Positions 3,563 to 25,537 of a DNA stretch of 32,000 bases are shown here, piece after piece. The position numbers and the translations under genes are program-made. Each line of letters opens with the position of its first letter. Position 1 is the stretch's first letter. The stretch spans positions 354,577 through 386,576 of the forward strand of contig LYOS01000002.1 of assembly GCA_001766815.1 (NCBI GenBank), given 5' to 3'. This DNA is from Candidatus Syntropharchaeum caldarium (GTDB taxonomy: Archaea > Halobacteriota > Syntropharchaeia > Syntropharchaeales > Syntropharchaeaceae). The notes under the pieces were generated by a model. That model ran no database searches, had not been told where the DNA came from, and was given only the letters and a program-made list of their open reading frames with translations.

Positions 3563-3564
3563 AA

Positions 3565-7094: not shown

Positions 7095-7099
7095 GATTT

Positions 7100-8434
7100 T
7101 TAACCCCCTATCTCCTCTGCAGCCTCTGCAATTCTTGAAAGTGGATCTTTTAAGACTGGGAGCACCTCTCTGAGCTTGAAGATATGCTTTGATGTAACTT
7201 CTGGCATGTACATCTGGGTTCCGGCATCAAGACACATCGCAGCAACAGCACATGGGATTATGAAGCCCTTTGAACCTTTGGTTACAACATGCTCCCCAGA
7301 GAAGATCCCAACCTCTCCACCGCCGTAACTATTGTGTGTCAGCCATTCAAAGAGTGTGGCAGTCCCAAGCGCCCTTCCAAAGTCAACACCAGGGAGCGAC
7401 GTTGCTAATGCAAGCAGATCACTGTAGAACTGCATCGCAGACGGTACACCCTGGGCAGACCTTGACGCTCCTGCATTCTGGATCGCTGCAGCAAGGAGCC
7501 CCGCAGATGCGTAGGCGTTCCACATCGAGGCATCGTGGGTCGAGTACATCTCATATCCTGAAGGGAGCTTCTTCTCAAGCTCGATAATACCGTCTCGAAG
7601 CGCACGTTCGGTGACATCCTCGATTATATCGAGCACTGTAGCGTTCCCATGATCGCGTACAAGCTCATACACCATGTTTTTTGCGTTTAAACCCTGATAA
7701 GCCATGCCAAGCAGGTGATAACGCTTGTAAGGGCCTATCGCAGCACCTGATTCAAATGCTGCTGCATGTTCCAGCACCGAGCTTAGTGCAACCGCATCAA
7801 AAGTGCGTCTGCCAGCCAGCGCAACGATCGTATTGACAGAAGGCGTCCTGTATGCAACACCTGCCCCCTCGATATGCATTGGGAATGAGAGGAGCGTTGA
7901 GACTGCTCCACCTGAAGGGGTAACAGTCTGCGGGAACCTGCCCATGATGGCACATTTAACCATATCAACACCATCAAATATTCCAAGATTGAACTCATCA
8001 ATGATCGCATGGGCAAGTGCTGTTGCTGGAAGCAGATACGCCTGCGTATATTCTGTCCCTGTCTCAAGCATGATCGATGGTATCTGAACGATTAGCAGGG
8101 AGTCAAGTATCTCAAGTCTTGTATCATCATCATCCGCGACTTTGAGCATCTCGCGCATCCGCTCTGCGATAGAAGCTGCATGCTCTTTGATGGGCAGATC
8201 AACCTCTCTCCCAAGAATTCTGCATTCACCACCGACAGCCATCGTGTTTCCAACGCTACCGCTCTTGAGTGAAGTTTCAAGCTTATTTAAATCGATTATG
8301 GCAGTGCGTTTAAGTGTATGTAGAATCTCCCTTATCGCACTGTTTTTATAAGGGCTTAGTGCATCATAATGAATATTTTCTGCAACAGACACACCACGAT
8401 CGTTATAAATCGTAAATCTATCGCTATCATTCAT
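7100..8434 (-). CDS. mcrB: Methyl/alkyl-coenzyme M reductase beta subunit.
   Basis: McrB-like sequence runs throughout: LGMAYQGLNA, MWNAYASAGLLAA and SKGFIIPCAVAAMCLDAGTQM. I prefer the ATG at 8434 (MNDSDRFTIYNDRG) over the TTG at 8449. Confidence 0.9.
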   Translation of the reverse strand: MNDSDRFTIYNDRGVSVAENIHYDALSPYKNSAIREILHTLKRTAIIDLNKLETSLKSGSVGNTMAVGGECRILGREVDLPIKEHAASIAERMREMLKVADDDDTRLEILDSLLIVQIPSIMLETGTEYTQAYLLPATALAHAIIDEFNLGIFDGVDMVKCAIMGRFPQTVTPSGGAVSTLLSFPMHIEGAGVAYRTPSVNTIVALAGRRTFDAVALSSVLEHAAAFESGAAIGPYKRYHLLGMAYQGLNAKNMVYELVRDHGNATVLDIIEDVTERALRDGIIELEKKLPSGYEMYSTHDASMWNAYASAGLLAAAIQNAGASRSAQGVPSAMQFYSDLLALATSLPGVDFGRALGTATLFEWLTHNSYGGGEVGIFSGEHVVTKGSKGFIIPCAVAAMCLDAGTQMYMPEVTSKHIFKLREVLPVLKDPLSRIAEAAEEIGG

Positions 8435-8456
8435 GGCATCAATGTACAATCTTTTA

Positions 8457-8472: not shown

Positions 8473-8512
8473 AAAAAATAGTTAGTATTAAAAGTAAAAA
8501 GGCCTGAAAAAC

Positions 8513-8647
8513 TCAAGCCTTCGATTCAAGCTCTTTTATAAGCATCTCTTTCAGGGTTTTTGCATTATCTTTTGAAAGCTCAAGCTCAACCCGACCAAGC
8601 GTAATCAGCCTCGCACCGCTCCTCGTCAGATTTACTTCTATCTCCAT
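8513..8647 (-). CDS. Small 44-aa protein, paralogous to the N-terminus of the 116-aa protein upstream. It is not in the ORF track.
   Basis: My own translation is MEIEVNLTRSGARLITLGRVELELSKDNAKTLKEMLIKELESKA*. An RBS, TAGGTG, lies 7-8 nt upstream. It aligns with MEIEVYKTARGRFLLTIGRLDIELDEEDANTLKTKLE of 8657..9007. Confidence 0.6.
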   Translation of the reverse strand: MEIEVNLTRSGARLITLGRVELELSKDNAKTLKEMLIKELESKA

Positions 8648-8656
8648 ACACAACAC

Positions 8657-9007
8657 CTACTTGATGTAACTATCCGCGATCCTGCGTGTAGCTTCAATAT
8701 CTGCCTTCATCCCGAGTTCAAGGATGTTCTTCAGCGTCGCCTTTGTGTACTCGCCTCGCATGAACTGGGTTGCAAGCCCCTTTTCTCTTGGCCACATCTC
8801 AATCTTTGCTGATGTGATCAGGACAAGCATATCTTCCCTGAAGTTTTCAAGCTCGTCCTCATCGAGTGTAAGCAGTCCTTCGAGCCAGTCTGTCATCTCA
8901 AGCTTCGTTTTGAGCGTGTTTGCGTCTTCCTCATCCAGTTCGATATCGAGACGTCCTATCGTGAGCAAAAACCTGCCACGCGCTGTTTTATAGACCTCGA
9001 TCTCCAT
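8657..9007 (-). CDS. Hypothetical 116-aa protein, acidic and predicted helical.
   Basis: An intact ORF with RBS GAGGTGG, 9 nt downstream of the ATPase gene. I do not recognise a family. Confidence 0.6.
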   Translation of the reverse strand: MEIEVYKTARGRFLLTIGRLDIELDEEDANTLKTKLEMTDWLEGLLTLDEDELENFREDMLVLITSAKIEMWPREKGLATQFMRGEYTKATLKNILELGMKADIEATRRIADSYIK

Positions 9008-9016
9008 TCTGCCACC

Positions 9017-10447
9017 TCATACATATGGTGTGAGCTTCAGCGTTGGAGATCCGTCAACAAATACAGTATCAACGTTGTAAATCCACGTCTCAGGTTTAAT
9101 TCCATAGAGCACAACAGTTCGATCGAGCGTAGTGAGTTTGAGATACTTGCTCGCCATGTCAACAAGCTCATCCCTGATGGCAAGGTTTGGTGTGACTCTC
9201 ACGATATCAACATTACCTCTCTCCTTGGTGGTCTCAATATTCACGCTAATCTCTTTTATTCCTGTACTTAACTCTCCGATCTCTTTCAGGCGGTAAGGGA
9301 ATTCAAGCATATCAGCACCGATAAAACCAATAACTGGTGATTCTTTCGAGATTTTATGCTCCCTTATTGTCCGCAGGTCATCCTTTATCGAGTTACCTTT
9401 GAGCGGCACCATATTTTCACGTGGTTCTGCTCCTTCTGGATGGATCTCAAAGACAGTCAAATTTTTTCTGTACTTATCCTCATCGACAAAAGGCCCCAGG
9501 ACCTTTCTCCATCGAGCTTCATTTCTACCACAGCATGGAAGCGCCACGACCGGATGATCATTCTGTATCGCGTTGATGAAAGTTACACCGACAATAGCCT
9601 GATAGCCCCATCCAGAGATGTCATCCCCGACCTCGAAGACGTTGAACGAACCTCGCCTGAAACCACCTCCAAGGATCTTGTCGAGATCTTCACTTCCTGA
9701 AGATACAAAATTTCCCTTATCGGGTATCGGTTTTACCTTTGTAGGCCCTGTTGGAGGTATTGACTTGATCCCAAACGGATTGAAGATCTGAAAACGCCCA
9801 TCCAGTAGTGTAAATGGGTATTTTGGTTGATCGATACGTGTCCGCCTTAACTTGGACATGTAGATCTCCCTTACACGCCTGTACTCGATCATGATATCAT
9901 TGAATACGACGATACCGTCAACAAGGTAATCAAGTGTTGTAACATCCATCGTCTCACCTGTTAGAATGAGGTTGATGTTACGTTCTCGCACAAGTTCAGT
10001 CACAAGTGCCTCAAGCCTTGCCATCTCAACCGGCTCACACTGTAGCTTTATCGCATCCCAGCTATCGATCACAACCGTGACCCCTTCCCCCATCTCACTG
10101 ATCCTTCTTGCAAGTACCTCAGGGAATGTCATTGTTCCGGTCATTGCAGACGTATATACCGTGTAATCGGTCGGGACATAGATCTTGCTCGTGTCTATAA
10201 TATTTATCGGTTCGATACACTCCTCAAGCCATGGGAAGTGTGTGTAGAGTGCTTTTGGCGAGACCCTTGTTGAAAGGTAAATCCCCTCTCCGCCTACTGC
10301 ACGAAGCAGTTCAAGTGCTAAGGAGGTTTTGCCCACACCTGGTCTCCCTTTCAAGAGGAGTGAGAAACCCCCTGGCTTTTCGATAGCTCTCAAAAGTTCT
10401 GCAGGAACGTGCGTCCTGCTCTCTTCGGCACCACTTAATTCAGCCAT
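9017..10447 (-). CDS. KaiC/RecA-superfamily P-loop ATPase (GvpD-like, two-domain).
   Basis: It has a Walker A motif, LLLKGRPGVGKTSLALELL, and a Walker B-like VVIDSWD. The length is about 476 aa. An alternative GTG start lies at 10456. Confidence 0.7.
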   Translation of the reverse strand: MAELSGAEESRTHVPAELLRAIEKPGGFSLLLKGRPGVGKTSLALELLRAVGGEGIYLSTRVSPKALYTHFPWLEECIEPINIIDTSKIYVPTDYTVYTSAMTGTMTFPEVLARRISEMGEGVTVVIDSWDAIKLQCEPVEMARLEALVTELVRERNINLILTGETMDVTTLDYLVDGIVVFNDIMIEYRRVREIYMSKLRRTRIDQPKYPFTLLDGRFQIFNPFGIKSIPPTGPTKVKPIPDKGNFVSSGSEDLDKILGGGFRRGSFNVFEVGDDISGWGYQAIVGVTFINAIQNDHPVVALPCCGRNEARWRKVLGPFVDEDKYRKNLTVFEIHPEGAEPRENMVPLKGNSIKDDLRTIREHKISKESPVIGFIGADMLEFPYRLKEIGELSTGIKEISVNIETTKERGNVDIVRVTPNLAIRDELVDMASKYLKLTTLDRTVVLYGIKPETWIYNVDTVFVDGSPTLKLTPYV

Positions 10448-10660
10448 ATTAATCACAATAGTTCATTATAGATCTTATCCTATTTAAACTTTTGTATTCT
10501 TACATCATTTTCAATTAGAATTCCGCTGAATTTTACACGATGTTACCACCGAAAGACAGAACCTCTTCATCAAAATAGAATAAGTTTATTAATGATAAAC
10601 TTTAATAATGATAATTAGGTGGATCTATGATAAATATATCTCTTGGAGGCAAGATTTAAG

Positions 10661-11332
10661 ATGATTACAGGTGAACGCAAGGATCTCGAAGAGCTGATGG
10701 AGATCGTTAAAACATACAACAGTCTCGCTGTCGTTGGATGCGATGGCTGTGTGGGGATATATCAGATAGGTGGGTTCAAAGAGGCGGAATCGCTTGCATC
10801 GCTCTTGAAGATGGGGGATAAGATCAAGAATGGTGTTGTTCAGGATGCAGAGGCATTTACCGTTATCAGGCAGTGTGATAAGGAGCTTATCGAGAAGGAA
10901 CTTGGTGGAAAACTTGATAAATTTGAGGCGATAGTCTCGACTGCATGTGGTGTCGGTGTCCAGACGATGGCAGCGGTATTCGAGGATAGGGTCGTTTATC
11001 CAGCTCTGAACACACTATTCATGGGAGCGCAGGATCGGGAAGGGGCGGAGCTTTATGAGCTGTGTAAAGGATGCGGTGACTGTGTGCTCCATTTAACAGG
11101 TGGGATCTGCCCCATGACTCGATGCGCAAAAGGACTCCTCAACGGTCCCTGTGGTGGGGCGGTTGATGGTAAGTGCGAGGTGGGCGATTACACGAATGAC
11201 TGTGCATGGGTTCTGATCTACGAAAAGTTGAAATCAATGGATCGACTCGACCTGTATACAACTTTCCGTTTACCGAGGGACAGAAGGCCGTCAATGAGCC
11301 CAAGAAAGCTTGCAGGGGGTGCAAAGTATTGA
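10661..11332 (+). CDS. metV: MetV-like protein (methylene-tetrahydrofolate reductase C-terminal-domain family, Cys-rich).
   Basis: It carries the motif GGICPMTRCAKGLLNGPCGG together with CKGCGDC. GGAGG lies 10 nt upstream of the ATG at 10661, and the TTG at 10643 overlaps that RBS. Confidence 0.75.
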   Translation: MITGERKDLEELMEIVKTYNSLAVVGCDGCVGIYQIGGFKEAESLASLLKMGDKIKNGVVQDAEAFTVIRQCDKELIEKELGGKLDKFEAIVSTACGVGVQTMAAVFEDRVVYPALNTLFMGAQDREGAELYELCKGCGDCVLHLTGGICPMTRCAKGLLNGPCGGAVDGKCEVGDYTNDCAWVLIYEKLKSMDRLDLYTTFRLPRDRRPSMSPRKLAGGAKY

Positions 11333-11352
11333 CTGAAGTTTATAGCGACTTG

Positions 11353-12252
11353 ATGAAGAAGATCAAGGAGGGCAAGTTTGTTTTTACAGGTGAGCTTGAG
11401 CCTGAGAAGACGACAGATCTCACCGAGCTTGTTGAGAGCGCCAAAAAACTTCTTGGTCACTGTGTTGCGTGCAATGTGACAGATAACCCCCAGTCAATGG
11501 CTTACATGTCAAGCCTCGTGGCATCACATATCGTCCAGCGTGATTCAGGGATGGAGTGCGTCTATCAGCTCAGGTGTTCTGATAGAAACTCGATTGCGTT
11601 AACATCAGATCTTCTGGGGGCGGGTGCACTTGGCATCAGGAACGTTCTTGCCTTAACAGGCGATCATACATCTCTGGGGGATTATCCAGGGTCGATGCCT
11701 GTCTTCGATCTTGATTCTGGGCAGCTTGTATATCTGATCAGGCGCATGGTGGATGAGGGGGTTGATCTCAATGGAAAGCCGATAGAACATCCACCCAGGT
11801 TCCACGTAGGCGTGGCTGGAAACCCAAACGCAGACCCGCTCGATTCTGAGATCTTGAAGCTCAAACGGAAGGTCGAGGCTGGGGCTGAGTTTGTCCAGAC
11901 ACAGGTCATATTCGATATTGAGATTGCAAAGACGTTCCTTAAAGAGATGGAGAAGTACAAGGTCCCGGTCTTAATCGGCATTTTCCCGCTCAAGAACTAT
12001 GGAACAGCCGATTACTTCGATAAGTATATTCCAGGCGTGCACGTGCCAAAAGATCTTCTTGCAAAGATGAAAGAGGCATCGGAGATCGGAGACAAGAAGA
12101 AGAAGATGGAGCGGTATGATGAGATAAACCTCGACTATTACGGAGATTTTGTCCATGAAATCGCACATAACACCTCTGCTGCTGGAATACATGTCATGGC
12201 GGTGGCTTATGAGCGGATAACCCCACCACTTATCGAGTGTGCGAAAATATGA
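11353..12252 (+). CDS. metF: MetF-type 5,10-methylene-tetrahydrofolate/H4MPT reductase.
   Basis: The N-terminus GKFVFTGELEPEKT matches MetF and the fold length is about 300 aa. An alternative TTG start at 11329 overlaps the metV stop (TTGA) and follows a GGGGGTG RBS. Confidence 0.8.
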   Translation: MKKIKEGKFVFTGELEPEKTTDLTELVESAKKLLGHCVACNVTDNPQSMAYMSSLVASHIVQRDSGMECVYQLRCSDRNSIALTSDLLGAGALGIRNVLALTGDHTSLGDYPGSMPVFDLDSGQLVYLIRRMVDEGVDLNGKPIEHPPRFHVGVAGNPNADPLDSEILKLKRKVEAGAEFVQTQVIFDIEIAKTFLKEMEKYKVPVLIGIFPLKNYGTADYFDKYIPGVHVPKDLLAKMKEASEIGDKKKKMERYDEINLDYYGDFVHEIAHNTSAAGIHVMAVAYERITPPLIECAKI

Positions 12253-14210
12253 GTCGGGATGAGATAAAAATCGGGGTCTATGTCTGCCACTGCGGGATAA
12301 ACATCGAGGCGACGGTTGATACTGCAAGGGTTGCTGAGTTTGCCTCTCACCTACCAGGAGTTGTTGTTGCAAGAGACTACAAGTATATGTGTTCAGATCC
12401 TGGCCAGGAACTGATCAGGGAAGATATGCGTGAGCTTGGGGTAAACAGGGTCGTTGTTGCATCCTGTTCACCCAGAATGCATGAACCAACATACAGAGCG
12501 GTACTTGCAGAGACGGGTGGGAATGAATACTGCTTCGAGATGGCAAATATCCGTGAGCAGTGCTCATGGGTTCATAAGAACAGAGAAGAAGGTACAAAGA
12601 AGGCGATGGATCTTGTAGAAGGGGCTGTTGCCAGGGCCTACCTGCTTGAACCACTTGAGCCAAGAGAGGTTGATGTAATCCCTGCGTGTCTCGTCATCGG
12701 GGGTGGTGTTTCGGGGATCTATGCCGCACTTGGTGTTGCAGAGAAGGGATTCAAGACCTATCTTGTCGAGAAGACGCCTTCGATCGGTGGACACATGGCA
12801 CAGCTTGATAAAACTTTTCCAACGCTGGACTGTTCGGCATGTATTTTAACACCCAAGATGGTCGATGCCGCAAGACACCCCAATATCGAGCTTATGACCT
12901 ACTCAGAGGTTATGGATGTCTCAGGATATGTCGGTAACTTCAACGTTACAATCCGTAAGAAGCCGAGATATATCGATATCGACCTGTGTACAGGCTGTGG
13001 GCTTTGCGGTGAGGCGTGCATCCTTTCTGGAAAGATCCCCAATGAGTTTGATATGAAAAAGGGAAAACGGGGGGCGGCATATGTTCCATTTCCACAGGCA
13101 GTGCCTTTGAAGTACACGATCGATCCTGAAAATTGCATCTTCCTGAAGAAGGGCAAGTGCGGAAAGTCACCAGCCTGTCAGGAAGCCTGTCCAAGAGATG
13201 CAATAGATTTCACGCAACGGGAAGAGATCGTTGAGATTGAAGTTGGATCGATCATCATCGCAACAGGTTATGACCTCTTTGACCCGTCCACAGAACCGCA
13301 GTATGGGTACGGACTTCCGAATGTGATAACAGGCCTTGAATTTGAGCGTCTGATCAATGCATCAGGTCCAACCGGTGGCAAGGTGCTTCTTGAGAATGGA
13401 GAGTATCCCAAAAAAGTTGTTCTGATCCAGTGTGTCGGATCAAGGGAGATCGGGGGTAGATCGTACTGTTCGCGGTTCTGCTGTATGTATACCGCAAAGC
13501 ATGCACACCTGATCGAGGAGAAGATAGAGGGTGCAGAGGTTACAGTTCTATATACTGATGTCAGAGCGTTTGGGAAAGGATTTGAGGAGTTTTACAACCG
13601 TGTCAAGTCGGAAGGAATCAACTACATCTGGCGTGATCTATATGCGTCGATCGAGGTGACACAGAACGGTGATGGCCTGAAGGTCAAAGCAGAAGGTGTT
13701 GGACCCATCGAGCTTGATGCTGATATGGTCGTGCTTGCAACCGCTGCTGTTCCATCCCGGGATGCAAAAGAGATCGGAAGCGTTCTCAAGATCCCGGAGA
13801 GTCCTGACGGCTTTTTCATGGAGTCCCATCCCAAGCTCAAGCCGATCGATACAGCATCTGATGGGATATTCCTTGCAGGCTGCTGTCAGTCACCAAAAGA
13901 CATTCCTGATTCGGTCGCACAGGCGTGTGGAGCGGCTTCCAGGGCTGCGATCTCACTCTTCAGGGGTAAGGTGCCGATCGAGGTTATCTCATCCCAGATC
14001 AATGAAGAGATCTGCTCAGGCTGCAGGATGTGTGAAGAGATCTGTGCCTATGGTGCACTTAGCTTTGACGAAGAAAAAGGTCTTATGACCGTGAATGAAG
14101 TGCTGTGCAAGGGGTGCGGTTCATGCGCTTCGACATGTCCATCAGGTGCGATTACGATGAAACACTACAAGGATGCGCAGATATTTGCGCAGATCGAGGC
14201 GGTGGTTTGA
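12249..14210 (+). CDS. hdrA: Heterodisulfide reductase subunit A (canonical architecture).
   Basis: It shows VCHCGINI, CSPRMHE, NIREQCSWVH, GGGVSG, LDCSACILTPK, an inserted 2x[4Fe-4S] ferredoxin domain, CSRFCCMY and a C-terminal 2x[4Fe-4S] domain. An ATGA overlap links it to the metF stop. Confidence 0.9.
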   Translation: MSRDEIKIGVYVCHCGINIEATVDTARVAEFASHLPGVVVARDYKYMCSDPGQELIREDMRELGVNRVVVASCSPRMHEPTYRAVLAETGGNEYCFEMANIREQCSWVHKNREEGTKKAMDLVEGAVARAYLLEPLEPREVDVIPACLVIGGGVSGIYAALGVAEKGFKTYLVEKTPSIGGHMAQLDKTFPTLDCSACILTPKMVDAARHPNIELMTYSEVMDVSGYVGNFNVTIRKKPRYIDIDLCTGCGLCGEACILSGKIPNEFDMKKGKRGAAYVPFPQAVPLKYTIDPENCIFLKKGKCGKSPACQEACPRDAIDFTQREEIVEIEVGSIIIATGYDLFDPSTEPQYGYGLPNVITGLEFERLINASGPTGGKVLLENGEYPKKVVLIQCVGSREIGGRSYCSRFCCMYTAKHAHLIEEKIEGAEVTVLYTDVRAFGKGFEEFYNRVKSEGINYIWRDLYASIEVTQNGDGLKVKAEGVGPIELDADMVVLATAAVPSRDAKEIGSVLKIPESPDGFFMESHPKLKPIDTASDGIFLAGCCQSPKDIPDSVAQACGAASRAAISLFRGKVPIEVISSQINEEICSGCRMCEEICAYGALSFDEEKGLMTVNEVLCKGCGSCASTCPSGAITMKHYKDAQIFAQIEAVV

Positions 14211-14212
14211 GG

Positions 14213-15928
14213 ATGAAGATACTTGTATTTATCTGCGGGTGCCAGGGAAAGATCGAGGAGGTGCTTGATCTCGATGCACTCTCAGCCTTCACATCCACGA
14301 TCGAGGACGTCGAGGCAGTGAAGATCGATCGATACCTCTGTGGTAAGGAGGGTCTCTCGCTCTTCAAAGAGGAGGTTATGCGTGTTAAGCCCGATCGCGT
14401 GATCATTGCTGGATGCTCTCCCCGTCTTCATGGCGAGATATTTGCAGAGGCGCTAGAAGACGCTGGTATGAATCCACACCTCAGAGAGCATGTGAACATC
14501 AGAGAACAGTGTGCATGGGCGCACTTCGATGATTTAGATGGTGCAAACCGCAAGGCAAAGAAGCTCATGGAGATGGGGATTGCAAAGGTCAGGCTCAAGC
14601 GACCGCTTGACAAGATTAATGTAGAGATGAAACCAGCAGCTCTTGTTATTGGTGGTGGTGTTTCTGGTATGGAAGCAGCTTTGGATCTTTCAAATGGTGG
14701 TTTCAAGGTTTATCTTGTTGAACGAGAAGCTGAACTTGGTGGACGAGTCAAACGATTGAGCCAGACATTTCCCACTGTTGGATGCGGCATCTGCTGTATG
14801 CATGACTGTCCTGATTGTGTACTCACACCACAGGTGGAGGAGGTCTTATCTGATGAGAATATCGAGGTCTTAACCTCCACGACCGTTGAGAAGGCGGATG
14901 GCTTTATTGGAAACTATAAAGTTAGACTCACCGGTGGCGGAGAGATCGATGTTGGAACTGTAATAATTGCAACAGGAACCAAGACTTTTGATCCGAACCG
15001 TATTCCTGAGTATAGCTATTCCTCAGCCGATGTCATAACCTCGCTTGAGCTTGAGGATCTCTATATGAAGGCACGGTCAGATGGTGGCCAGATAAAGCGC
15101 CCCTCAGATGGTAAGATCCCTGAATCCATCAACTTCATCCAGTGTGTTGGATCAAGAGGGATCAAGGGTGGAAATCCGTACTGCTCGATCGTCTGCTGTA
15201 TATATGCACTTGGCCATGCGAGGGAGTTCAAGTCCCGCTACCCGGACGCTGAAGTTACCATTCATTACATCGATCTTAGATCACCCTATCGTGGATTTGA
15301 GGAGTACTACAACGAAGCACGTGATATGGGTGTTAACTTTGTAAGAGGAGAGATTGATAAAATTGAGGAGCGAGAGGACGGTGTCTATATTATGGGCACC
15401 AATCGAGATACAAAGGAGAGATATGAGATGAAATCAGATCTCGTAGTCCTCTCAGTCGGGCAGGAACCAGCGGATAATACGCGTGAGCTTGCAAATTTGT
15501 TCAACCTTGAGCTTGATCAGGACGGATTCTTTTTAGAGAAAAACCTGCGGCTGATCGGGGAGGATACATCGGGTGTCTATGTCGCTGGCGCAGCCAATGG
15601 TCCAAGAAATATACGTTACTCTGTCGCAGACGGAAGGGTTATGGCTGAAGCTGCCATCGAGCGAATCGGTGCTGAGAGAATCCTGCTTGAGGGGGTTGTT
15701 GCCAGAATTGATCAGGACCTCTGCATCAAATGTGCGACATGTCTTGAGGTATGCCCATACGGGATTGTTGAAATTGTCCGTGAGGATGCAGAAGAGATAC
15801 GTCTCGAGGTGCTTGAGGGTGGATGCAGGGCATGCGGGATATGTGCTGCTGAGTGCCCAGCATCTGCGATACAGCTTGAGGACTTCAGGGATGATCAGAT
15901 ACTTGCTGAGGTGGAGGTTGCGATATGA
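14213..15928 (+). CDS. HdrA-like flavoprotein, a variant lacking the inserted ferredoxin domain.
   Basis: It shows ICGCQGK, CSPRLHGE, NIREQCAWAH, GGGVSG and the new Cys motif CGICCMHDCPDC, plus CSIVCCIY and a C-terminal 2x[4Fe-4S] domain. The ATG lies 2 nt after the previous stop. Confidence 0.85.
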   Translation: MKILVFICGCQGKIEEVLDLDALSAFTSTIEDVEAVKIDRYLCGKEGLSLFKEEVMRVKPDRVIIAGCSPRLHGEIFAEALEDAGMNPHLREHVNIREQCAWAHFDDLDGANRKAKKLMEMGIAKVRLKRPLDKINVEMKPAALVIGGGVSGMEAALDLSNGGFKVYLVEREAELGGRVKRLSQTFPTVGCGICCMHDCPDCVLTPQVEEVLSDENIEVLTSTTVEKADGFIGNYKVRLTGGGEIDVGTVIIATGTKTFDPNRIPEYSYSSADVITSLELEDLYMKARSDGGQIKRPSDGKIPESINFIQCVGSRGIKGGNPYCSIVCCIYALGHAREFKSRYPDAEVTIHYIDLRSPYRGFEEYYNEARDMGVNFVRGEIDKIEEREDGVYIMGTNRDTKERYEMKSDLVVLSVGQEPADNTRELANLFNLELDQDGFFLEKNLRLIGEDTSGVYVAGAANGPRNIRYSVADGRVMAEAAIERIGAERILLEGVVARIDQDLCIKCATCLEVCPYGIVEIVREDAEEIRLEVLEGGCRACGICAAECPASAIQLEDFRDDQILAEVEVAI

Positions 15929-17634
15929 TCGGCGTATTCTTGTGTGGCTGTGATGGCGAGGTATCAGAGAGGATCGAGCTTAAGTGGCTGGGCGAGGTTG
16001 CAGAGCGTGATCCAGATGTTGGGTATCTCGAGATAGATGAGCACCTCTGCAGTAAGGAGGCGGTCAGGAAGATAAGGTCGATTGTAGAGTCAAAGAACCT
16101 CGATAGGATTGTTATCGCCGGATGCTCTCCCAGAACTCATGAGAAGATCTTTGATGACCTTGCACCGATCGTTGAGTTTGCAAACATACGTGAGCAGGCT
16201 GCATGGGTCCATCCAGAGAAAGAAGAGGCAACACGGGTTGCAGCAGATATTTTACAGTCTGCAATAGTCCGTGCAAAACTGGCAGCAGAGCTTGAACCAG
16301 TCAGAGTTCCGATCGAGCCATCATGTCTCGTGATCGGTGGCGGAGTTTCAGGTATGCAGGCAGCATCAGATCTTTCTGCTCAAGGGTACAGGGTCTATCT
16401 TGTTGAGCGGGATGAGCGGCTTGGTGGACGGGTAAAGCGACTCTCAATGACCTTCCCCACCATTAGTTGTGGTTTTCCATGCAGACACGACTGTCCTGAG
16501 TGTGAACTGACGCCAAAAGAGGAAGAGCTCTATGCATCCGAGTTTGTTGAGATCTTAACATCCACAGAGGTCATGGAAGTAGAGGGCAGGATCGGGGACT
16601 ACCATGTCACGCTCAGGACTCCAGAAGGGGTGCGCGAGATAAAGGTCGGCACCGTCGTTATTGCAACAGGGACAAAAACCTATGATCCATCCAGAATTCC
16701 TGAGTATGGTTATGAGTTTGAGGATGTCATCACATCGATCGAGCTTGAGGATCTTTACATGAAGCACAGGTTCCTTGGTGGAGGTGGGGAGCTTAGAAGG
16801 CCATCTGATGATGCAATACCGAAACGAGTGGATTTCATCCAGTGTGTCGGATCAAGGGGAGAGAAAGGAGGAAATCCGTACTGCTCGATCGTCTGCTGTC
16901 TCTATGGGATCGGGCATGCACGTGCGATAAAAGAGATGCACCCAGCATGCGAGGTTTATCTCCACTTCACAAATATCCAGGCTCCATACAGGGGGTTTGA
17001 GGAGTATTACAAGGAATCCGAGTCACTCGGGGTCAACTTCGTGCGTGGTGAGGTGAAGTTAGTTGAGAAGGGTGAAGAAGGACTTGTTATAACATACGAG
17101 AATGTCGACCTGCAAAAGAGCTTTGAAGAAGCGACCGATCTTGTGGTGCTATCTGTCGGTCAGGAACCATCAGATGGAGCAAAAGAGCTTGCAGAACTCT
17201 TCTACAGAGAACTTGATCCAGATGGCTTCTTCACTGAGGTCAACCAGAAGATTGTCAGAGAGGATGCAACCGGGGTCTTTGTTGCAGGTTGTGCGCTTGG
17301 GCCCCGTAATATCCGCTATGCGGTTGCAGACGGCAAGATTGCAGCAGAGAATGCGCTGGCGCTCCTCAAAAAGGGTGAATTCGAGATGGAAGGGATAATG
17401 CCGATCGTTGATGATACAAAGTGCATCGGGTGTAATATCTGCGGAAATCTCTGCTACTTCGGGGCGATTGGTGTGACGGAGGAGATAGCAGAGGTTGTTG
17501 AGGGTAAGTGCAGAGGATGTGGGATCTGTGCTGCAGCCTGCCCTGAGAAGGCGATCACGCTCACACAGTTTGATGACGAAGAGATTACGGCTCAGATTGA
17601 GGTATTTGCCAGAGCAGGGGAGGTGTCTGGATGA
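15925..17634 (+). CDS. HdrA-like flavoprotein, the second copy of the variant type.
   Basis: It has the same architecture as 14213..15928 (LCGCDGE, CGFPCRHDCPEC, CSIVCCLY, C-terminal ferredoxin). An ATGA overlap links it to the upstream gene. Confidence 0.85.
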   Translation: MIGVFLCGCDGEVSERIELKWLGEVAERDPDVGYLEIDEHLCSKEAVRKIRSIVESKNLDRIVIAGCSPRTHEKIFDDLAPIVEFANIREQAAWVHPEKEEATRVAADILQSAIVRAKLAAELEPVRVPIEPSCLVIGGGVSGMQAASDLSAQGYRVYLVERDERLGGRVKRLSMTFPTISCGFPCRHDCPECELTPKEEELYASEFVEILTSTEVMEVEGRIGDYHVTLRTPEGVREIKVGTVVIATGTKTYDPSRIPEYGYEFEDVITSIELEDLYMKHRFLGGGGELRRPSDDAIPKRVDFIQCVGSRGEKGGNPYCSIVCCLYGIGHARAIKEMHPACEVYLHFTNIQAPYRGFEEYYKESESLGVNFVRGEVKLVEKGEEGLVITYENVDLQKSFEEATDLVVLSVGQEPSDGAKELAELFYRELDPDGFFTEVNQKIVREDATGVFVAGCALGPRNIRYAVADGKIAAENALALLKKGEFEMEGIMPIVDDTKCIGCNICGNLCYFGAIGVTEEIAEVVEGKCRGCGICAAACPEKAITLTQFDDEEITAQIEVFARAGEVSG

Positions 17635-18359
17635 AGATTCTTGTATTCTGCTGTGACTGGTGTTCCTACCCAGGTGCGGATCTTGCAGGCATCCTGAGGC
17701 TTGAATATCCACCAGAAGTCAGGATCATAAAGGTGATGTGCTCAGGCAGGGTGGATCCGATGCTCGTGCTCGATGCGTTGAGGCAGGGAATTGATGGCGT
17801 GATGGTGACAGGTTGCCATCCTGGTGAATGCCACTACGTCCACGGGAATATGGAGGCTGAGCGAAGGATTGAGCTTCTAAGATCAATATTTGAGAGATCT
17901 GGGATAAACCCCAGGCGTGTGAGGATTGAGTGGATCTCGGCATCAGAGGGTGAAAAGTTTGCAGAGGTTACACGTGCATTTAAACAGGAGATCGATGAGA
18001 TTGGACCCATCAATCAAGGTGAGATCGATGCAGCAGAAATCATCCATGATGTATTCTCATCAGAGCGGGCAAGACTTGTCCTTGGCGCTTCAAGGCGTGC
18101 GATCGAACTTGAGGGCGTTGATCCTCTCTGGTATAAAGGGGTTCTTGAGCGTACGGTGCGAGAGGAGGTTTTGCGTGAGCGGATACTCAGAGAACTGCGA
18201 AAGAGTGGTGCCCTGAGCGCACATGAACTTGCAGAACGGATCGGTGAACCAGCAAAGGAGATCTTCTGGAACTTGATCGCGATGAAACGAAGGCAGATCA
18301 TTCTTGATATGGGGATAGTAGATGATTCACTCAAGTTTGCCATACAGGAGGGTGTGTGA
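17631..18359 (+). CDS. mvhD: MvhD-like [2Fe-2S] protein with a C-terminal extension of about 110 aa (possible winged helix).
   Basis: The N-terminal part, FCCDWCSY...VMCSGRVD...VTGCHPGECHY, matches MvhD. Residues from about 128 to 242 are extra and include ILRELRKSGALSAHELAERIGEPAKEIFWNLIAMKRR. An ATGA overlap links it upstream. Confidence 0.85.
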   Translation: MKILVFCCDWCSYPGADLAGILRLEYPPEVRIIKVMCSGRVDPMLVLDALRQGIDGVMVTGCHPGECHYVHGNMEAERRIELLRSIFERSGINPRRVRIEWISASEGEKFAEVTRAFKQEIDEIGPINQGEIDAAEIIHDVFSSERARLVLGASRRAIELEGVDPLWYKGVLERTVREEVLRERILRELRKSGALSAHELAERIGEPAKEIFWNLIAMKRRQIILDMGIVDDSLKFAIQEGV

Positions 18360-20317
18360 TGAGAATCGGTGTCTATGTCTGCCACTGCGGGATCAATATC
18401 GGTGCAACCGTGGATGTTAAAAAGGTTGCTGAGTTCGCATCCCATCTCAAAGACGTTGTCATCTCCCGTGAGTACAGTTACATGTGCTCAGATCCAGGTC
18501 AGGAGCTTATAAAGAAGGATATACGGGAATTAGGACTTGACCGGGTCGTTGTTGCATCCTGTTCGCCCAGAATGCATGAGCCAACATTCAGGACCGCGGT
18601 CGCAGAGGCAGGCTTGAATCCTTATCTTTTTGAGATGGCAAACATCAGGGAGCACTGCTCATGGGTGCACGATGATCGTGAACGTGCAACCGAGAAGGCG
18701 ATGCACCTTGTTGCAGGCTCTGTCTATAAGTCAAAGCTTCTTGAACCACTCGAGCCAATGCAGGTTGGAATCACGAAGAAAGCGCTTGTCATGGGTGCAG
18801 GGATCGCTGGAATTCAGACAGCCCTTGATATCGCAGATTCAGGCTTCGAGGTCTATCTTGTTGAGCGATCGCCTTCCGTGGGTGGAAAGATGGCGCAGCT
18901 TGATAAGACGTTCCCAACGCTGGACTGCTCTGCGTGTATCCTGACACCAAAAATGGTCGATGCAGGGAGGCACCCAAATATCGAGCTCATGACATACTCA
19001 GAAGTAATTGATATCGATGGTTATGTCGGAAACTTCAAGGTCAAGATCAAGAAGAAGCCGAGATTCATCGATATCGAGAAGTGCACAGGCTGTGGTGAGT
19101 GTGCATCCCGCTGCCCGGTGGATGTTCCAAATGAGTTTGATGAAGGGATCGGAATCCGAAGTGCAATCTATATTCCATTCCCACAGGCGGTCCCCTTGAA
19201 GTACACGATCGATCGTGATAGCTGTATCCGCTGTGGGACATGCAAGAATGTCTGCAAACGTGATGCAATCGACTATGATCAGACCGAGGAGATCGTAGAA
19301 CTTGATGTAGGGGCAATCGTTGCTGCAACAGGCTATGACCTGATGGATGTGAGTTCCAGGGAGGAGTATGGCTACGGCAGGTTTGATAATGTCATAACAG
19401 GCCTGGAGTTTGAGCGGTTATGCAATGCATCAGGTCCAACCGGTGGAAAGATTCTCACAAAGGATGGTAGAGAACCCAAAGATGTTATCTTCATCCAGTG
19501 TGTCGGATCCAGGGAGATTGGGGGCAATGAATACTGTTCAAGGTTCTGCTGCATGTACACGGCAAAGCACGCACATCTTGTCGAGGACAGGATTGAAAGC
19601 GGCAAGGCGAAGGTTTTATTCACGGATGCACGGGCTTATGGCAAGGGCTTCGAAGAGTTCTATGTGCGGGTGATGGAGGAGGGTGTCGACTACTACAGGC
19701 GTGATCATGACAAACCAGTCAGTGTCACCGAAAGGGAGGATGGCAAGCTTATTGTTACAGCAACCGCGCTTGATGGCTCGCCAATTGAGCTTGAAGGGGA
19801 TATGGTCGTGCTCGCAACAGCAGCCACGGCATGTGAGGATGCGTTTGAGGTATCAAGGCTTCTAAATATCTCACGAACAGGCGATGGCTTCTTCATGGAG
19901 GCACATCCAAAATTAAGGCCGATTGATACACCATCTGATGGAATCTTCCTTGCAGGCTGTTCACAGGGACCAAAGGATATTCCTGACACGGTTGCTCAAG
20001 CTTCTGGTGCAGCTTCACAGGTTCTGAACCTGCTCGCCCAGGATTCAACGACCGGTTCACCGAGCGTATCAGAGGTAAACCAGGATATCTGCATCGGGTG
20101 TGCCACGTGCTTTGAGGTCTGTCCATACGGTGCGATCGAGATGGAGCGGCTTGAGGTTGGGTGGCGTGCAAAGACGAACGAGGTCGTATGTAAGGGCTGT
20201 GGTATCTGCGCCGGCGAATGTCCTGCACTTGCGATCAATGTGAAGCACTTTACGGATGAACAGATAATAAATAAGATTGAAGGTGTTCTTGCTGATTTGA
20301 ACGAGGTGGTAACATGA
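18359..20317 (+). CDS. hdrA: Heterodisulfide reductase subunit A (canonical architecture), a paralog of 12249..14210.
   Basis: It has the same motif set as the first hdrA, and the 5' ends are near-identical at the DNA level. The start overlaps the mvhD stop (TGATG). An alternative GTG start lies at 18356. Confidence 0.9.
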   Translation: MRIGVYVCHCGINIGATVDVKKVAEFASHLKDVVISREYSYMCSDPGQELIKKDIRELGLDRVVVASCSPRMHEPTFRTAVAEAGLNPYLFEMANIREHCSWVHDDRERATEKAMHLVAGSVYKSKLLEPLEPMQVGITKKALVMGAGIAGIQTALDIADSGFEVYLVERSPSVGGKMAQLDKTFPTLDCSACILTPKMVDAGRHPNIELMTYSEVIDIDGYVGNFKVKIKKKPRFIDIEKCTGCGECASRCPVDVPNEFDEGIGIRSAIYIPFPQAVPLKYTIDRDSCIRCGTCKNVCKRDAIDYDQTEEIVELDVGAIVAATGYDLMDVSSREEYGYGRFDNVITGLEFERLCNASGPTGGKILTKDGREPKDVIFIQCVGSREIGGNEYCSRFCCMYTAKHAHLVEDRIESGKAKVLFTDARAYGKGFEEFYVRVMEEGVDYYRRDHDKPVSVTEREDGKLIVTATALDGSPIELEGDMVVLATAATACEDAFEVSRLLNISRTGDGFFMEAHPKLRPIDTPSDGIFLAGCSQGPKDIPDTVAQASGAASQVLNLLAQDSTTGSPSVSEVNQDICIGCATCFEVCPYGAIEMERLEVGWRAKTNEVVCKGCGICAGECPALAINVKHFTDEQIINKIEGVLADLNEVVT

Positions 20318-20715
20318 GTTTTGAACCGTCAATTGTTGCCTTCTGCTGTAACTGGTGCTCTTATGCGGCAGCAGACCTGGCAGGAGTGAGTCGTATGAAA
20401 TATCCACCGAATGTGAGGATCATCCATGTTCCATGCTCTGGAAAGGTTGATCAGATCTATATCCTGAAAGCCCTTGAGATGGGGGCAGATGGGGTGCTTG
20501 TTACAGGGTGTATGGAAGGACAGTGCCATTATCTCACAGGAAACTACTACACCCGTGACCGTGTCGAGCGCCTGAAACGCGATCTTGAGAAGGTGGGGCT
20601 GGGCGGCAGGGTGGATATGTTCATGATGTCTGCTGCGATGGGGCGTGAATTTGCAGATACTGCAACGAGATTTACAGAGAAGATAAGAGAACTGGGACCG
20701 AACCCGTATAAGTAG
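20314..20715 (+). CDS. mvhD: MvhD, the standard-length 133-aa form.
   Basis: It shows FCCNWCSY...VPCSGKVD...VTGCMEGQCHY. An ATGA overlap links it to the hdrA stop. It ends in TAG. Confidence 0.9.
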   Translation: MSFEPSIVAFCCNWCSYAAADLAGVSRMKYPPNVRIIHVPCSGKVDQIYILKALEMGADGVLVTGCMEGQCHYLTGNYYTRDRVERLKRDLEKVGLGGRVDMFMMSAAMGREFADTATRFTEKIRELGPNPYK

Positions 20716-20733
20716 AGGGGGAGGTTCCGGGGG

Positions 20734-20745
20734 TTTTATTTTTTT
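20734..20745 (+). terminator. Oligo-T tract after the metV-mvhD operon.
   Basis: TTTTATTTTTTT lies 19 nt after the mvhD stop. Archaeal termination commonly uses oligo-T. Confidence 0.4.
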
Positions 20746-20748
20746 GGG

Positions 20749-21804
20749 ATGAGATCGGTGATAAGGGTTGAGAGAGTAGATATCGGAAGGTTGAAGGTGA
20801 TTTTTGGGTATAATCCAGATCACATCGCAAAGATAAAGACTGTCAGAGGCTATAGATGGCATCCTGATGGGAAATACTGGAGTGTGCCTTACTCTGAATT
20901 TGAAAGGCTCATATCAGTTTTTGGTTGTGAAAAGCTTGATATCGATCCTGTTGTATGGCTCAGCAAGCTTGAAAAGGAGCTTGCTGCAAGAAGATACAGT
21001 TCAAAGACGAAAAAAGCCTATCTTCATTACAATGAAGACTTTTTAAAGTTTTCTCGCAAAAACCCCACCGAAATATCCAATGATAATGTAAAAGATTATC
21101 TATTTCATCTGGTGGAGAAAAAAGAAGTCTCTACATCCACTTTGAATACAGCGATCAACGCATTGAAGTTTTACTATGGTGAGGTTTTGAAGCGAAGGTT
21201 TGCTTACGAGATAAAGAGGCCAAAGAAGGATAAGAAGCTTCCTGTTGTTCTGAGTCAGGAGGAGGTTTCAAGGATTATATCTTCCGTTACAAATCTCAAA
21301 CACAAACTGATTTTGATGCTTGTCTATTCTGCTGGTTTGAGGGTTAGCGAGGTTGTAACGTTGAAGCCGGAGGATATCGATGTGGAAAGGGAGCTTATCC
21401 ATGTTAAGGGAGCCAAGGGCAGAAAGGACAGATACACGATGCTTTCGGATGTGGCGATGGGGGCTCTGGAGCTGTATCTAAAGGCGTATCGACCCGAGAA
21501 ATGGCTCTTTCCCGGACAAAAATCCAGTTCCCACATCACAACGAGAACGGTGCAGAGGATATTTGAAGACGCCATCGAGAAGGCGGGGATCAAGAAGGAT
21601 GTTAGTGTTCATTCGTTAAGGCACAGCTTCGCAACACATTTACTGGAGGGCGGGACAGACCTGCGGTATATCCAGGAGCTGCTTGGGCATAAAAGTTCGA
21701 AGACGACAGAAATATATACGCATGTGAGTAAGAAAGACCTGAGTAACATAAAAAGTCCATTAGACTCTATCCTGACTCAAGAGGTAGTGGATGAAGATCG
21801 GTGA
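20749..21804 (+). CDS. Tyrosine recombinase/integrase, Xer-like, with an extra N-terminal domain of about 70 aa.
   Basis: The full catalytic set is present: R in AGLRVSE, K in VKGAKGRKDR, HSLRHSF, LGHKS and EIYTHV. The R-to-H spacing is 90 residues, which is Xer-like and not IntI-like. Confidence 0.9.
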   Translation: MRSVIRVERVDIGRLKVIFGYNPDHIAKIKTVRGYRWHPDGKYWSVPYSEFERLISVFGCEKLDIDPVVWLSKLEKELAARRYSSKTKKAYLHYNEDFLKFSRKNPTEISNDNVKDYLFHLVEKKEVSTSTLNTAINALKFYYGEVLKRRFAYEIKRPKKDKKLPVVLSQEEVSRIISSVTNLKHKLILMLVYSAGLRVSEVVTLKPEDIDVERELIHVKGAKGRKDRYTMLSDVAMGALELYLKAYRPEKWLFPGQKSSSHITTRTVQRIFEDAIEKAGIKKDVSVHSLRHSFATHLLEGGTDLRYIQELLGHKSSKTTEIYTHVSKKDLSNIKSPLDSILTQEVVDEDR

Positions 21805-24803: not shown

Positions 24804-24864
24804 CCCAAGCCCGCCTTGGGAAAGGATTTAAAAGTTGAAGCAAAACAATAAAACTGGGTACGAT

Positions 24865-25173
24865 ATGATAAAAGATATATCAGTTGATGAAATAAAAAGA
24901 ACTCTTAAAAAATATAAAAGTGAGCTAAAAGAGAAATTCGGAGTTAAAGAGATTGGTGTGTTTGGCTCCTATGTAAGAAGAGAACAGAAAAAAGGCAGTG
25001 ATATTGACATCCTCGTTGAATTTCATCCAGATACTGAGATGGACTTAATAAAATTTGTTGAACTCGAAGAATATCTATCTAAACTATTAGGAATAAAAGT
25101 TGATCTGGTAATGAAATCTGCTCTTAAACCACGGATAGGAAAGCGGATATTGAAAGAGGTAGTTTATATATGA
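24865..25173 (+). CDS. mntA: MNT-type nucleotidyltransferase (antitoxin partner of HepT).
   Basis: It has the motif GVFGSYVRREQKKGSDIDILV and is 102 aa. I prefer the ATG at 24865 over the TTG at 24835. Confidence 0.85.
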   Translation: MIKDISVDEIKRTLKKYKSELKEKFGVKEIGVFGSYVRREQKKGSDIDILVEFHPDTEMDLIKFVELEEYLSKLLGIKVDLVMKSALKPRIGKRILKEVVYI

Positions 25174-25537
25174 AAAGAGAAGCCGGCGACTTTATTGAAG
25201 ATATTATCAATGATCATATCAATGATCAATGCGATGAATAAAGCGTTAAAGTTTGTTGAGGGGATGTCTTATGAAGAGTTTGCCAAAGATGACAAAACCG
25301 TTTTTGCTGTTATTAGAGCTATTGAAATAATCGGAGAGGCTGTAAAAAAATATACCCGAAGATATAAGGAAAGAGTATCCCGAAATTCCCTGGAAGGGGA
25401 TGGCTGGGATGAGAGACAAAGTTATTCACGGGTATTTTGGAGTAGATATCAAAGTTGTGTGGGATACTGTTACAAAGAGAATTCCGGGACTTAAACCACT
25501 GGTTGAGAAGATGTTAGAAGAGCTGGAGGAGAAATAG
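25170..25537 (+). pseudogene. hepT: HepT (DUF86) RNase toxin gene, disrupted twice.
   Basis: An ATGA overlap links it to the MNT stop. An insertion of about 19 nt containing ATCAATGATCA twice (25206-25228) breaks the frame after MKREAGDFIEDII. A 7-A run (25344-25350) shifts the frame again just before IPEDIRKEYPEIPWKGMAGMRDKVIHGYF. The Rx4HxY motif is readable only in the shifted frame. Confidence 0.75.

Follow-up and report, generated by a model that had tools for sequence, protein, structure and literature searches.

How is the methyl/methylene-tetrahydromethanopterin (H4MPT) step carried out, and where do its electrons go, in archaea without Mer? Syntrophoarchaeum and the anaerobic methanotrophs of group ANME-1 lack mer and encode metF instead (PMC10322722; PMC9012536), and for both groups the question of this step and of the fate of its electrons is recognized as open (Chadwick et al. 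2022, PMC9012536). Genetically, the Mer replacement can be approached most concretely through an operon of eight consecutive genes, metV, metF, hdrA, hdrA', hdrA', mvhD, hdrA and mvhD, at positions 10661-20715 on the + strand of a 32,000-nucleotide stretch of Candidatus Syntropharchaeum caldarium (also S. caldarius; assembly GCA_001766815.1, contig LYOS01000002.1, positions 354,577 to 386,576), hereafter called the window. The reading favored here, which is given even chances, is that the products MetFV-(HdrA)4-(MvhD)2 constitute a flavin-based confurcating or bifurcating methyl/methylene-H4MPT oxidoreductase that replaces Mer, with ferredoxin and probably coenzyme F420 as partners. MetFV-HdrA-MvhD clusters have already been noted in both Ca. 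Syntrophoarchaeum genomes, and it was proposed that MetF may complex with HdrA paralogues, its electrons directly entering bifurcation or confurcation (Chadwick et al. 2022, PMC9012536). Neither the association nor the bifurcation idea is thus new, both having been published in a few sentences without anatomy. A literature search returned no paper that dissects the cluster, gives its biochemistry or describes an ANME-1 metVF-hdrA-frhB cluster, and MetF goes unmentioned in a 2025 survey that covered 1,152 HdrA sequences. New here are the gene-for-gene conservation of the order, its FrhB-containing Methanophagales-type version, the anatomy of the HdrA classes and the existence of archaeal metVF loci that carry hdrCB.

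The eight genes were taken from the open reading frame (ORF) listing, and a junction script showed that each of the seven junctions between them is either an overlap or a gap no longer than 2 nt. ATGA overlaps lie at 12249-12252, 15925-15928, 17631-17634 and 20314-20317, a TGATG overlap at 18357-18361 (mvhD1/hdrA4) and a gap of 2 nt at 14211-14212 (hdrA1/hdrA2). An initial annotation of the window had described the genes as tightly coupled and had listed these junctions, and both the coupling and every coordinate were reproduced; it had, however, overlooked the junction between metV and metF, a 4-nt TTGA overlap in which the TTG start at 11329 runs into the TGA stop at 11330-11332. Most operon starts are preceded by purine-rich stretches resembling Shine-Dalgarno sequences. 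Overlaps of 4 nt also occur between other same-strand gene pairs in the window, and the tight junctions are real but ordinary for operons; it is the conservation of gene order across lineages, not the overlaps themselves, that lifts the pattern above chance. Upstream, the AT-rich divergent region in front of metV contains a TATA-like TTTAAA at 10483 as well as a GGAGG about 10 nt before the metV ATG, and is presumed to be the promoter region. Downstream, an oligo-T tract is the presumed archaeal terminator. It holds the sole T7 run in or next to the operon, while T5 runs are sparse in the 10-kb coding stretch (four, or 0.4 per kb, vs 1.25 per kb in the whole window). Here, the assessment relied on the counting of T runs, as the bacterial promoter and terminator scanner does not model archaeal signals and is unsuited. 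The eight genes probably form one transcription unit with both ends inside the window, so that partner genes belonging to the same operon just outside it, which would have weakened the initial annotation, are not found.

Pfam and PDB sequence searches bore out the gene identities given at the outset for all eight proteins, and with them the division of the HdrAs into two of full length and two shorter HdrA' proteins. The four HdrA paralogues were aligned to HdrA of M. thermolithotrophicus (PDB 5ODC chain A), and residue positions follow the numbering of this reference. Each has Pyr_redox/FAD and Fer4 domains according to Pfam and a single TrxR domain, with no GltD/Fer4_20 match; phmmer searches against the reference chain gave E values of 1.5e-233 for HdrA1 and 6.5e-120 for HdrA2. 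HdrA2 matches an NCBI protein of Ca. S. caldarius with 100% identity. HdrA1 and HdrA4 are canonical proteins in which every Cys ligand of six [4Fe-4S] clusters is kept, those of the inserted ferredoxin domain included. HdrA1 displays the N-terminal cluster domain, C194/C197, the HA3 ligands, the inserted and C-terminal ferredoxin domains and E356/K409, and thereby keeps 29 of the 29 tabulated reference positions (27 Cys plus E356/K409). HdrA4 is likewise 58% identical to the reference and keeps all cluster ligands and E356/K409, a residue pair tied to flavin-based bifurcation or the bifurcating FAD (flavin adenine dinucleotide; PMC12054007). HdrA2 and HdrA3, by contrast, lack the whole inserted ferredoxin domain (reference residues ~237-315), and their C194-x2-C197 site becomes C-x3-C-x3-C-x2-C through an 8-residue Cys insert (Table 1), whereas the N-terminal, HA3 and C-terminal ferredoxin ligands are retained. 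Measured against the canonical bifurcating HdrA of 5ODC, HdrA1 and HdrA4 show all of its features, while HdrA2 and HdrA3 depart from it in the inserted domain and at K409; among the four, the ferredoxin insert and K409 are confined to HdrA1 and HdrA4. The identity of the short proteins to the canonical ones is only ~38%. The features that set them apart are shared by about 100 archaeal and bacterial relatives in the database and by every collinear orthologue, and this Cys-insert class is widespread, with members in Thermoplasmata, among Methanomassiliicoccales-labelled proteins and in bacteria. The idea that the four HdrAs are recent tandem duplicates was rejected: identity is 63% between HdrA1 and HdrA4 and 52% between HdrA2 and HdrA3, the two classes differ from one another at a level of about 37%, and each copy has its own Methanophagales orthologue. 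As a separate observation, the second motif of the inserted ferredoxin in HdrA1 (residues ~297-320, window 13100-13200) is spaced C-x7-C-x5-C-x3-C instead of the classical C-x2-C-x2-C-x3-C; the widened spacing is found alike in S. caldarius and S. butanivorans, while HdrA4 is classical.

The catalytic end of the operon is formed by MetV and MetF. MetV is 89% identical to its S. butanivorans orthologue and 54-55% identical to those of Methanophagales-type loci, and the PDB search gave no solved homologue for it. MetF is 89% identical to its S. butanivorans counterpart, with values of 67% for Methanophagales and 64% for Bathyarchaeia proteins, and is assigned to the archaeal MetF clade of ANME-1 and uncultured archaea, not to that of the Methanosarcinaceae. 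The NCBI record (OFV68287.1) places the metF start at ATG 11353. Most likely, however, the start is TTG 11329, since the 8-residue peptide encoded from there (LTEVYSDLM) is conserved across phyla, with ATG as its first codon in MetF of the ANME-1 type and of Bathyarchaeia. At the other end, both MvhD proteins align to 5ODC chain D over its full length with the cluster-binding Cys motifs kept (E 3.4e-45 for MvhD1). MvhD2 is 96% identical to the S. butanivorans and 75% identical to the Methanophagales orthologue. MvhD1 additionally carries a C-terminal extension of ~115 residues (about 128-242) that is conserved in seven orthologues, also occurs in the Asgard-like locus L131 and is missing from MvhD2. 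A weak signal, consisting of Pfam matches alone, hints that this extension may resemble a winged helix, the ANME-1 orthologue of MvhD1 matching the winged-helix family HTH_24 at 2.4e-6; a single-sequence AlphaFold2 model of MvhD1 (mean predicted local distance difference test score, pLDDT, 48.8) was unusable for the fold of the extension.

Conservation among Mer-less archaea, proposed initially as a check, is borne out by the same gene order in Syntrophoarchaeales and, with an added FrhB-like gene, in Methanophagales-type loci. The identical eight-gene order occurs in three other Syntrophoarchaeales contigs, namely S. butanivorans LYOR01000002.1, a Syntropharchaeia contig from a metagenome-assembled genome (MAG), in which mvhD1 is present but uncalled, and Syntrophoarchaeum sp. 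12019_3 (L010). The latter was the useful match from a genome-collection scan with HdrA2, in which the generic ferredoxin peptide pattern otherwise drew unrelated bacteria. Three Methanophagales-type loci, in the 'Methanophagales archaeon' MAG (GCA_014859735.1), in GCA_025464345.1 and on a JGI metagenome contig, have the complete order plus one extra gene between hdrA1 and hdrA2, which encodes an FrhB/FdhB-like protein of 337-353 aa (PF04422 and PF04432). A fourth contig of this type, L100, shares the start of the cluster and then ends within hdrA2. None of the eight loci of Syntrophoarchaeales and the Methanophagales type has lost the link between metVF and hdrA1, and in a reciprocal comparison each window protein found its best match in the gene at the collinear position; that of hdrA3, for example, is the third hdrA in each related locus. 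As the order is collinear in both groups, the layout of four HdrAs and two MvhDs would be either ancestral to both or have moved as a block. The match lists of MetF, HdrA2 and FrhB suggest that further such contigs exist. In Frh, Fdh, Fpo and Fsr, the module that reacts with F420 is a subunit of the FrhB family. Hence, the ANME-1 version appears to encode modules for three substrates, with MetF for the pterin, FrhB for F420 and the inserts of HdrA1 and HdrA4 for ferredoxin, a threefold set that is typical of flavin-based bifurcating enzymes and is reached here without HdrBC. The initial statement that the second redox partner is unknown can thereby be narrowed, given an FrhB-like F420 subunit in collinear loci and a ferredoxin insert found only in HdrA1 and HdrA4. 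Within the genus, an alignment of window 8510-20725 with L010 4295-16513 revealed a mosaic in which the eight operon proteins are 98-99.6% identical, the adjacent ATPase 80% and a small ORF 83%, a pattern that points to recombination or to the operon having recently been exchanged between strains.

The Pfam search of the window ORFs detected no CCG/HdrB, HdrC-like, NiFe-hydrogenase or FrhB domain, with no match to PF02754, PF00374 or PF01058, and a CCG-motif regular expression run over six frames of the window found nothing while recovering its positive control in L090. The lack of hdrBC and mvhAG in the window asserted initially is thus upheld. The CCG motif is equally absent from seven related loci scanned, and L100, which ends within hdrA2, gave no CCG match by tblastn; in the related loci, hdrBC are missing for ~10 kb either side of the cluster where sequence exists. 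An assembly or window-edge artefact was rejected as the cause, both operon ends lying inside the window and seven further contigs agreeing. Judged from these loci, the absence of hdrBC from the cluster is a real lineage trait, and it carries meaning because other archaeal metVF loci (L114 and L131) do hold hdrCB within the cluster. The luciferase-like fold of Mer (PF00296) was also without match in the operon or the window.

From these parts a mechanism can be sketched. The operon products would assemble into a soluble multi-flavin, multi-iron-sulfur complex MetFV-(HdrA1,2,3,4)-(MvhD1,2), in which MetF, with MetV as iron-sulfur wire, would oxidize methyl-H4MPT to methylene-H4MPT, the step of Mer in other archaea. 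MetFV would take the place of HdrBC in classical heterodisulfide reductase and serve as the higher-potential substrate arm. HdrA1 and HdrA4 would be the confurcating or bifurcating flavoproteins exchanging electrons with ferredoxin, a role proposed because they keep the bifurcating-FAD signature and the ferredoxin-docking insert, while HdrA2 and HdrA3, having Gly409 and no insert, are probably non-bifurcating partners that break the symmetry of the HdrA dimer and pass electrons on. The two MvhDs would bridge to a third partner, which in the Methanophagales operon would be the FrhB-like, F420-binding subunit; in Syntrophoarchaeum, the F420 module would be supplied in trans or replaced by another carrier. 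Overall, methyl-H4MPT + reduced ferredoxin + 2 F420 would yield methylene-H4MPT + oxidized ferredoxin + 2 F420H2, or the reverse, F420 being included because the collinear Methanophagales operon encodes an FrhB-like subunit in place. The methyl-H4MPT couple lies at about -320 mV. With ferredoxin at -500 mV and F420 at -340 mV (PMC11543930), the two donors could in the oxidative direction reduce two F420 with a driving force of ~70 mV. The pterin is probably H4MPT, because the host has no mer, the MetF clade of ANME-1 and uncultured archaea occurs without accompanying tetrahydrofolate (H4F) genes (PMC9012536) and relatives adjoin mtd. A more specific version of this scheme is put forward tentatively and with somewhat less than even confidence: MetFV may have replaced HdrBC on a core of two canonical and two insert-less HdrAs, giving an uncharacterized class of confurcating enzyme that would use methyl-H4MPT plus reduced ferredoxin to reduce F420, through FrhB in ANME-1 and through a trans partner or other carrier in Syntrophoarchaeum.

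Among characterized systems, the operon as predicted is most like the Hdr-type methylenetetrahydrofolate reductase (MTHFR) of acetogens, yet it is BC-less and differs in HdrA architecture. In Moorella thermoacetica and Sporomusa ovata (HdrCBA-MvhD-MetVF), MetV, MetF, HdrA and MvhD likewise form one unit, HdrA lacks the inserted ferredoxin domain as HdrA2 and HdrA3 do here, and the enzyme is proposed to be flavin-based bifurcating, its own second partner being unidentified as well (PMC9430772). The references made initially to Moorella MetFV-HdrABC-MvhD (PMC9430772) and to MetF as Mer replacement in ANME-1 and Syntrophoarchaeum (PMC9012536; PMC10322722) are correct. The operon nonetheless departs from the acetogen enzyme in that HdrB and HdrC, the defining feature of that family, were looked for here and not found. 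Where Moorella has one fused HdrA with several TrxR domains and an NAD(P)H-binding GltD insert, the operon encodes HdrAs of two classes in four individual genes, along with a pair of MvhDs. Two HdrAs belong to the canonical methanogen type with ferredoxin insert, a GltD/NAD(P)H domain is missing, and the host is an archaeon with an oxidative pathway and probably H4MPT. The simpler MetVF-type, ferredoxin-dependent MTHFR (Clostridium ljungdahlii, the MetVF core of Sporomusa) shares the MetV and MetF core and the lack of NAD(P)H use (PMC9430772), but here translational coupling joins this core to another six redox proteins. With the methanogen complex HdrABC-MvhAGD (5ODC), the operon has in common the two HdrAs of 58% identity with every iron-sulfur ligand and E356/K409 as well as MvhDs that align to chain D; it differs in having MetFV instead of HdrBC/MvhAG, two extra short-class HdrAs and the C-terminal extension of MvhD1. 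The tandem or multi-HdrA clusters of ANME-1 (HdrA-FrhB-HdrA-MvhD) also combine HdrA paralogues of unequal domains with MvhD and no HdrBC, and they have been suggested to form a heterodimeric HdrA core with broken symmetry (PMC9012536); FrhB is shared with the Methanophagales orthologue of the operon. There, however, the paralogues show complementary loss of the N-terminal domain and Cys197 (PMC9012536), whereas here both are present in all four HdrAs, which are asymmetric in the ferredoxin insert and at K409. Mer itself, presumed by analogy to catalyze the same metabolic step, belongs to the unrelated luciferase-like family and is a single-subunit enzyme that uses F420 directly, with no iron-sulfur clusters or Hdr partners.

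To place the cluster among archaeal metVF genes, a metagenome scan with MetF was evaluated, which yielded 41 loci. Most archaeal metVF pairs stand alone or adjoin mtd and NfnB-like genes. In Bathyarchaeia (L006/L007, 8342-13199) and in L098, L099, L117 and L127, metVF adjoins mtd and a convergent NfnAB/GltD-like pair. Mtd is the F420-dependent methylene-H4MPT dehydrogenase and is H4MPT-specific. The adjacency speaks for a role of this MetF clade that is linked to H4MPT, and the NfnAB/GltD-like pair hints at an NAD(P)-linked partner in Bathyarchaeia and the metagenome lineages. In six loci (L090, L114, L120, L123, L131 and L132), metVF is fused to or juxtaposed with HdrA-MvhD in other layouts. 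L114 (3666-10234) encodes a fused HdrA-HdrA-MvhD followed by HdrC, HdrB, metV and metF. L131 (329-14456) runs hdrC, hdrB, hdrA, mvhD, fused hdrAA-mvhD, metV and metF and continues with a DUF7347-HdrA-MvhD fusion and a hydrogenase small subunit, while in L090 (5848-10906) a fused HdrA-HdrA-MvhD immediately precedes metVF and BC genes are missing. The fused proteins in these three loci measure ~1150 aa. Since L114 and L131 carry hdrC-hdrB, a Moorella-like layout exists in the archaeal MetF clade, and that of Syntrophoarchaeales and Methanophagales is a distinct BC-less variant.

Several observations weigh against the reading of a dedicated confurcating or bifurcating complex. The Syntrophoarchaeum operons contain no F420, NAD(P) or other third-substrate module, and among the best 120 matches to the FrhB of the ANME-1 cluster there was no named Syntrophoarchaeum orthologue, which is a weak result as most matches are nameless. 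Mer-type, F420-dependent oxidation of methyl-H4MPT is nearly isoenergetic, so that the need for confurcation is not obvious. Most archaeal metVF loci are without adjacent hdrA, and in the ANME-1 genomes of Chadwick et al. (PMC9012536) metFV is unlinked from hdrA, which implies that MetFV can work without being encoded beside Hdr proteins; the Methanophagales-type loci described here do have metF adjoining hdrA, a linkage that those authors found in no ANME-1 genome. Furthermore, acetogen MetVF alone is ferredoxin-dependent, and in Sporomusa the Hdr proteins failed to co-purify with it (PMC9430772). Finally, the HA3 cluster, the route to HdrC in classical Hdr, is kept in all four HdrAs, so that HdrBC could still dock.

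This last point leads to the first alternative, in which the operon products join HdrBC, and perhaps FrhB, encoded elsewhere into a dispersed Moorella-type enzyme that couples the pterin step to a disulfide such as CoM-S-S-CoB and would be a conventional HdrABC-type system except for its unlinked BC genes. The S. butanivorans genome is indeed reported to contain HdrABC and FrhB genes elsewhere (PMC11543930), and partners acting in trans may accordingly exist; hdrC-hdrB sit inside the metVF-hdrA-mvhD cluster of L114 and L131, and, from general pathway knowledge, alkane oxidizers must regenerate the heterodisulfide for alkyl-CoM reductase (Acr). Together with the conserved HA3 ligands, this keeps the alternative in play. 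It is nevertheless considered unlikely, as the cluster is without hdrBC in eight loci (seven CCG-scanned plus L100) across Syntrophoarchaeales and Methanophagales, these hdrBC-less lineages gained extra HdrAs instead, and the ANME-1 version already encodes all three substrate modules. An equally low probability is assigned to two functions sharing one operon, with MetFV working on its own, as in Clostridium ljungdahlii, as a methylene-pterin reductase or dehydrogenase that depends on ferredoxin, and the HdrA4-MvhD2 set forming a separate, co-regulated electron-transfer module such as an oxidoreductase of ferredoxin and F420 or another carrier. Although the activity of isolated MetVF with reduced ferredoxin, the many archaeal metVF loci without hdrA and the HdrA-FrhB-HdrA-MvhD clusters without metVF in ANME-1 genomes (PMC9012536) would fit such a division, the stop codon of metF overlaps the start of hdrA1 (ATGA), the metVF-hdrA1 link persists through all eight loci and independent lineages have joined HdrA-MvhD to metVF (the six loci listed above). 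Even in Sporomusa, where the Hdr proteins did not co-purify, pull-downs showed that MetVF physically interacts with HdrA and MvhD (PMC9430772). A biosynthetic role in H4F-dependent one-carbon metabolism, as in Methanosarcinaceae, instead of catabolic methyl oxidation is very improbable, for although MetF family membership alone does not tell which pterin is used, the protein falls into the ANME-1/uncultured-archaea clade without H4F genes (PMC9012536) and not into that of the Methanosarcinaceae, the window holds no folD, folP, glyA or purN, Syntrophoarchaeum has no mer (PMC10322722), relatives adjoin the H4MPT-specific mtd, and a biosynthetic enzyme would hardly need four HdrAs.

With a confurcating or bifurcating MetFV-Hdr complex as preferred reading, the cluster ties MetFV to bifurcation-type flavoproteins, excludes HdrBC genetically and names F420 and ferredoxin as candidate partners, resulting in a definable and assayable reaction. 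If the more specific version given above is true, the complex would be the long-sought functional Mer replacement as well as a route of ferredoxin re-oxidation in methane- and alkane-oxidizing Syntropharchaeia. At the same time, the Hdr-type MTHFR of acetogens would be extended to a simpler, BC-less archaeal form, which is perhaps easier to approach structurally.

Table 1 Features of the metVF-hdrA-mvhD operon and its immediate surroundings in the window
Feature	Position	Strand	Size	Description	Support
KaiC/GvpD-like P-loop ATPase	9017..10456	-		Conserved neighbor, not counted as subunit	PF07088, PF06745
Divergent intergenic region	10457..10660	.	204 bp	AT-rich, upstream, between KaiC/GvpD-like ATPase gene (-) and metV; presumed promoter region	
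metV	10661..11332	+	223 aa	Cys-rich small subunit of MetVF-type methylene-tetrahydropterin reductase	PF12225, E 9.5e-33
metF	11329..12252	+	307 aa (TTG 11329) or 299 aa (ATG 11353)	Flavin TIM-barrel catalytic subunit, methylenetetrahydrofolate-reductase family	PF02219, E 2.6e-36
hdrA1	12249..14210	+	653 aa	Canonical full-length HdrA	58% identity to M. thermolithotrophicus HdrA (5ODC_A)
hdrA2	14213..15928	+	571 aa	Short HdrA class, without inserted ferredoxin domain; insert CGICCMHDCPDC at C194/C197 site; Gly at 409	
hdrA3	15925..17634	+	569 aa	Second short-class HdrA; insert CGFPCRHDCPEC; Gly at 409	52% identity to hdrA2
mvhD1	17631..18359	+	242 aa	MvhD/FlpD [2Fe-2S] domain with C-terminal extension	PF02662, E 6.9e-54
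hdrA4	18359..20317	+	652 aa (ATG 18359; alternative start GTG 18356)	Canonical full-length HdrA	63% identity to hdrA1
mvhD2	20314..20715	+	133 aa	Plain MvhD, final operon gene	PF02662, E 3.9e-51
Oligo-T tract	20734..20745	+		TTTTATTTTTTT, 19 nt past mvhD2 stop codon; presumed terminator	
Tyrosine integrase	20749-21804			Directly past the oligo-T tract of the operon	

The operon is flanked by both conserved and mobile neighbors. In Methanophagales-type loci, the cluster is accompanied by orthologues of the KaiC/GvpD-like ATPase (44-48% identity), and S. butanivorans also has a homologue. A small ORF without Pfam match (8657-9007, -) likewise sits beside the metV operon in Syntrophoarchaeum and Methanophagales-type loci; counterparts of both are found in L008 (271-1656 and 3504-4013), L009 and L093. 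Both may be regulators or assembly factors. On the other side, the integrase represents an insertion relative to Syntrophoarchaeum sp. 12019_3 (inserted stretch 20726-21716), homology ending at 20725 and weakly resuming at 21717; that strain has no sizeable ORF downstream of the operon, and S. butanivorans carries a DDE transposase at the same position. Scans of the window for tRNAs and Rfam families found nothing, which leaves the integrase with no evident tRNA target, and a repeat search around it gave no convincing att-like repeats. Between 23000 and 25500, the GC content drops to 36-37% compared with ~48% elsewhere. This stretch encodes HEAT-repeat proteins, a radical SAM protein and, at 24835-25494, a nucleotidyltransferase/HepT-like toxin-antitoxin pair, and in view of the nearby integrase it may belong to a region that is mobile or foreign.

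Upstream of the operon, an mcrB-mcrA-mcrG set (4670-8449, -) has no mcrC or mcrD between its genes and probably encodes an alkyl-CoM reductase. Two multihaem c-type cytochromes (688-2414, -) and the 3' part of a thiolase gene (6-620, +) are located further upstream, and together with the mcrBAG set they fit a butane-oxidizing archaeon. Two overlapping ORFs at 3547-4167 and 4161-4466 (+) each match part of the Polysacc_synt flippase family and are probably one gene split by a frameshift, which would be either a pseudogene or a sequencing error.

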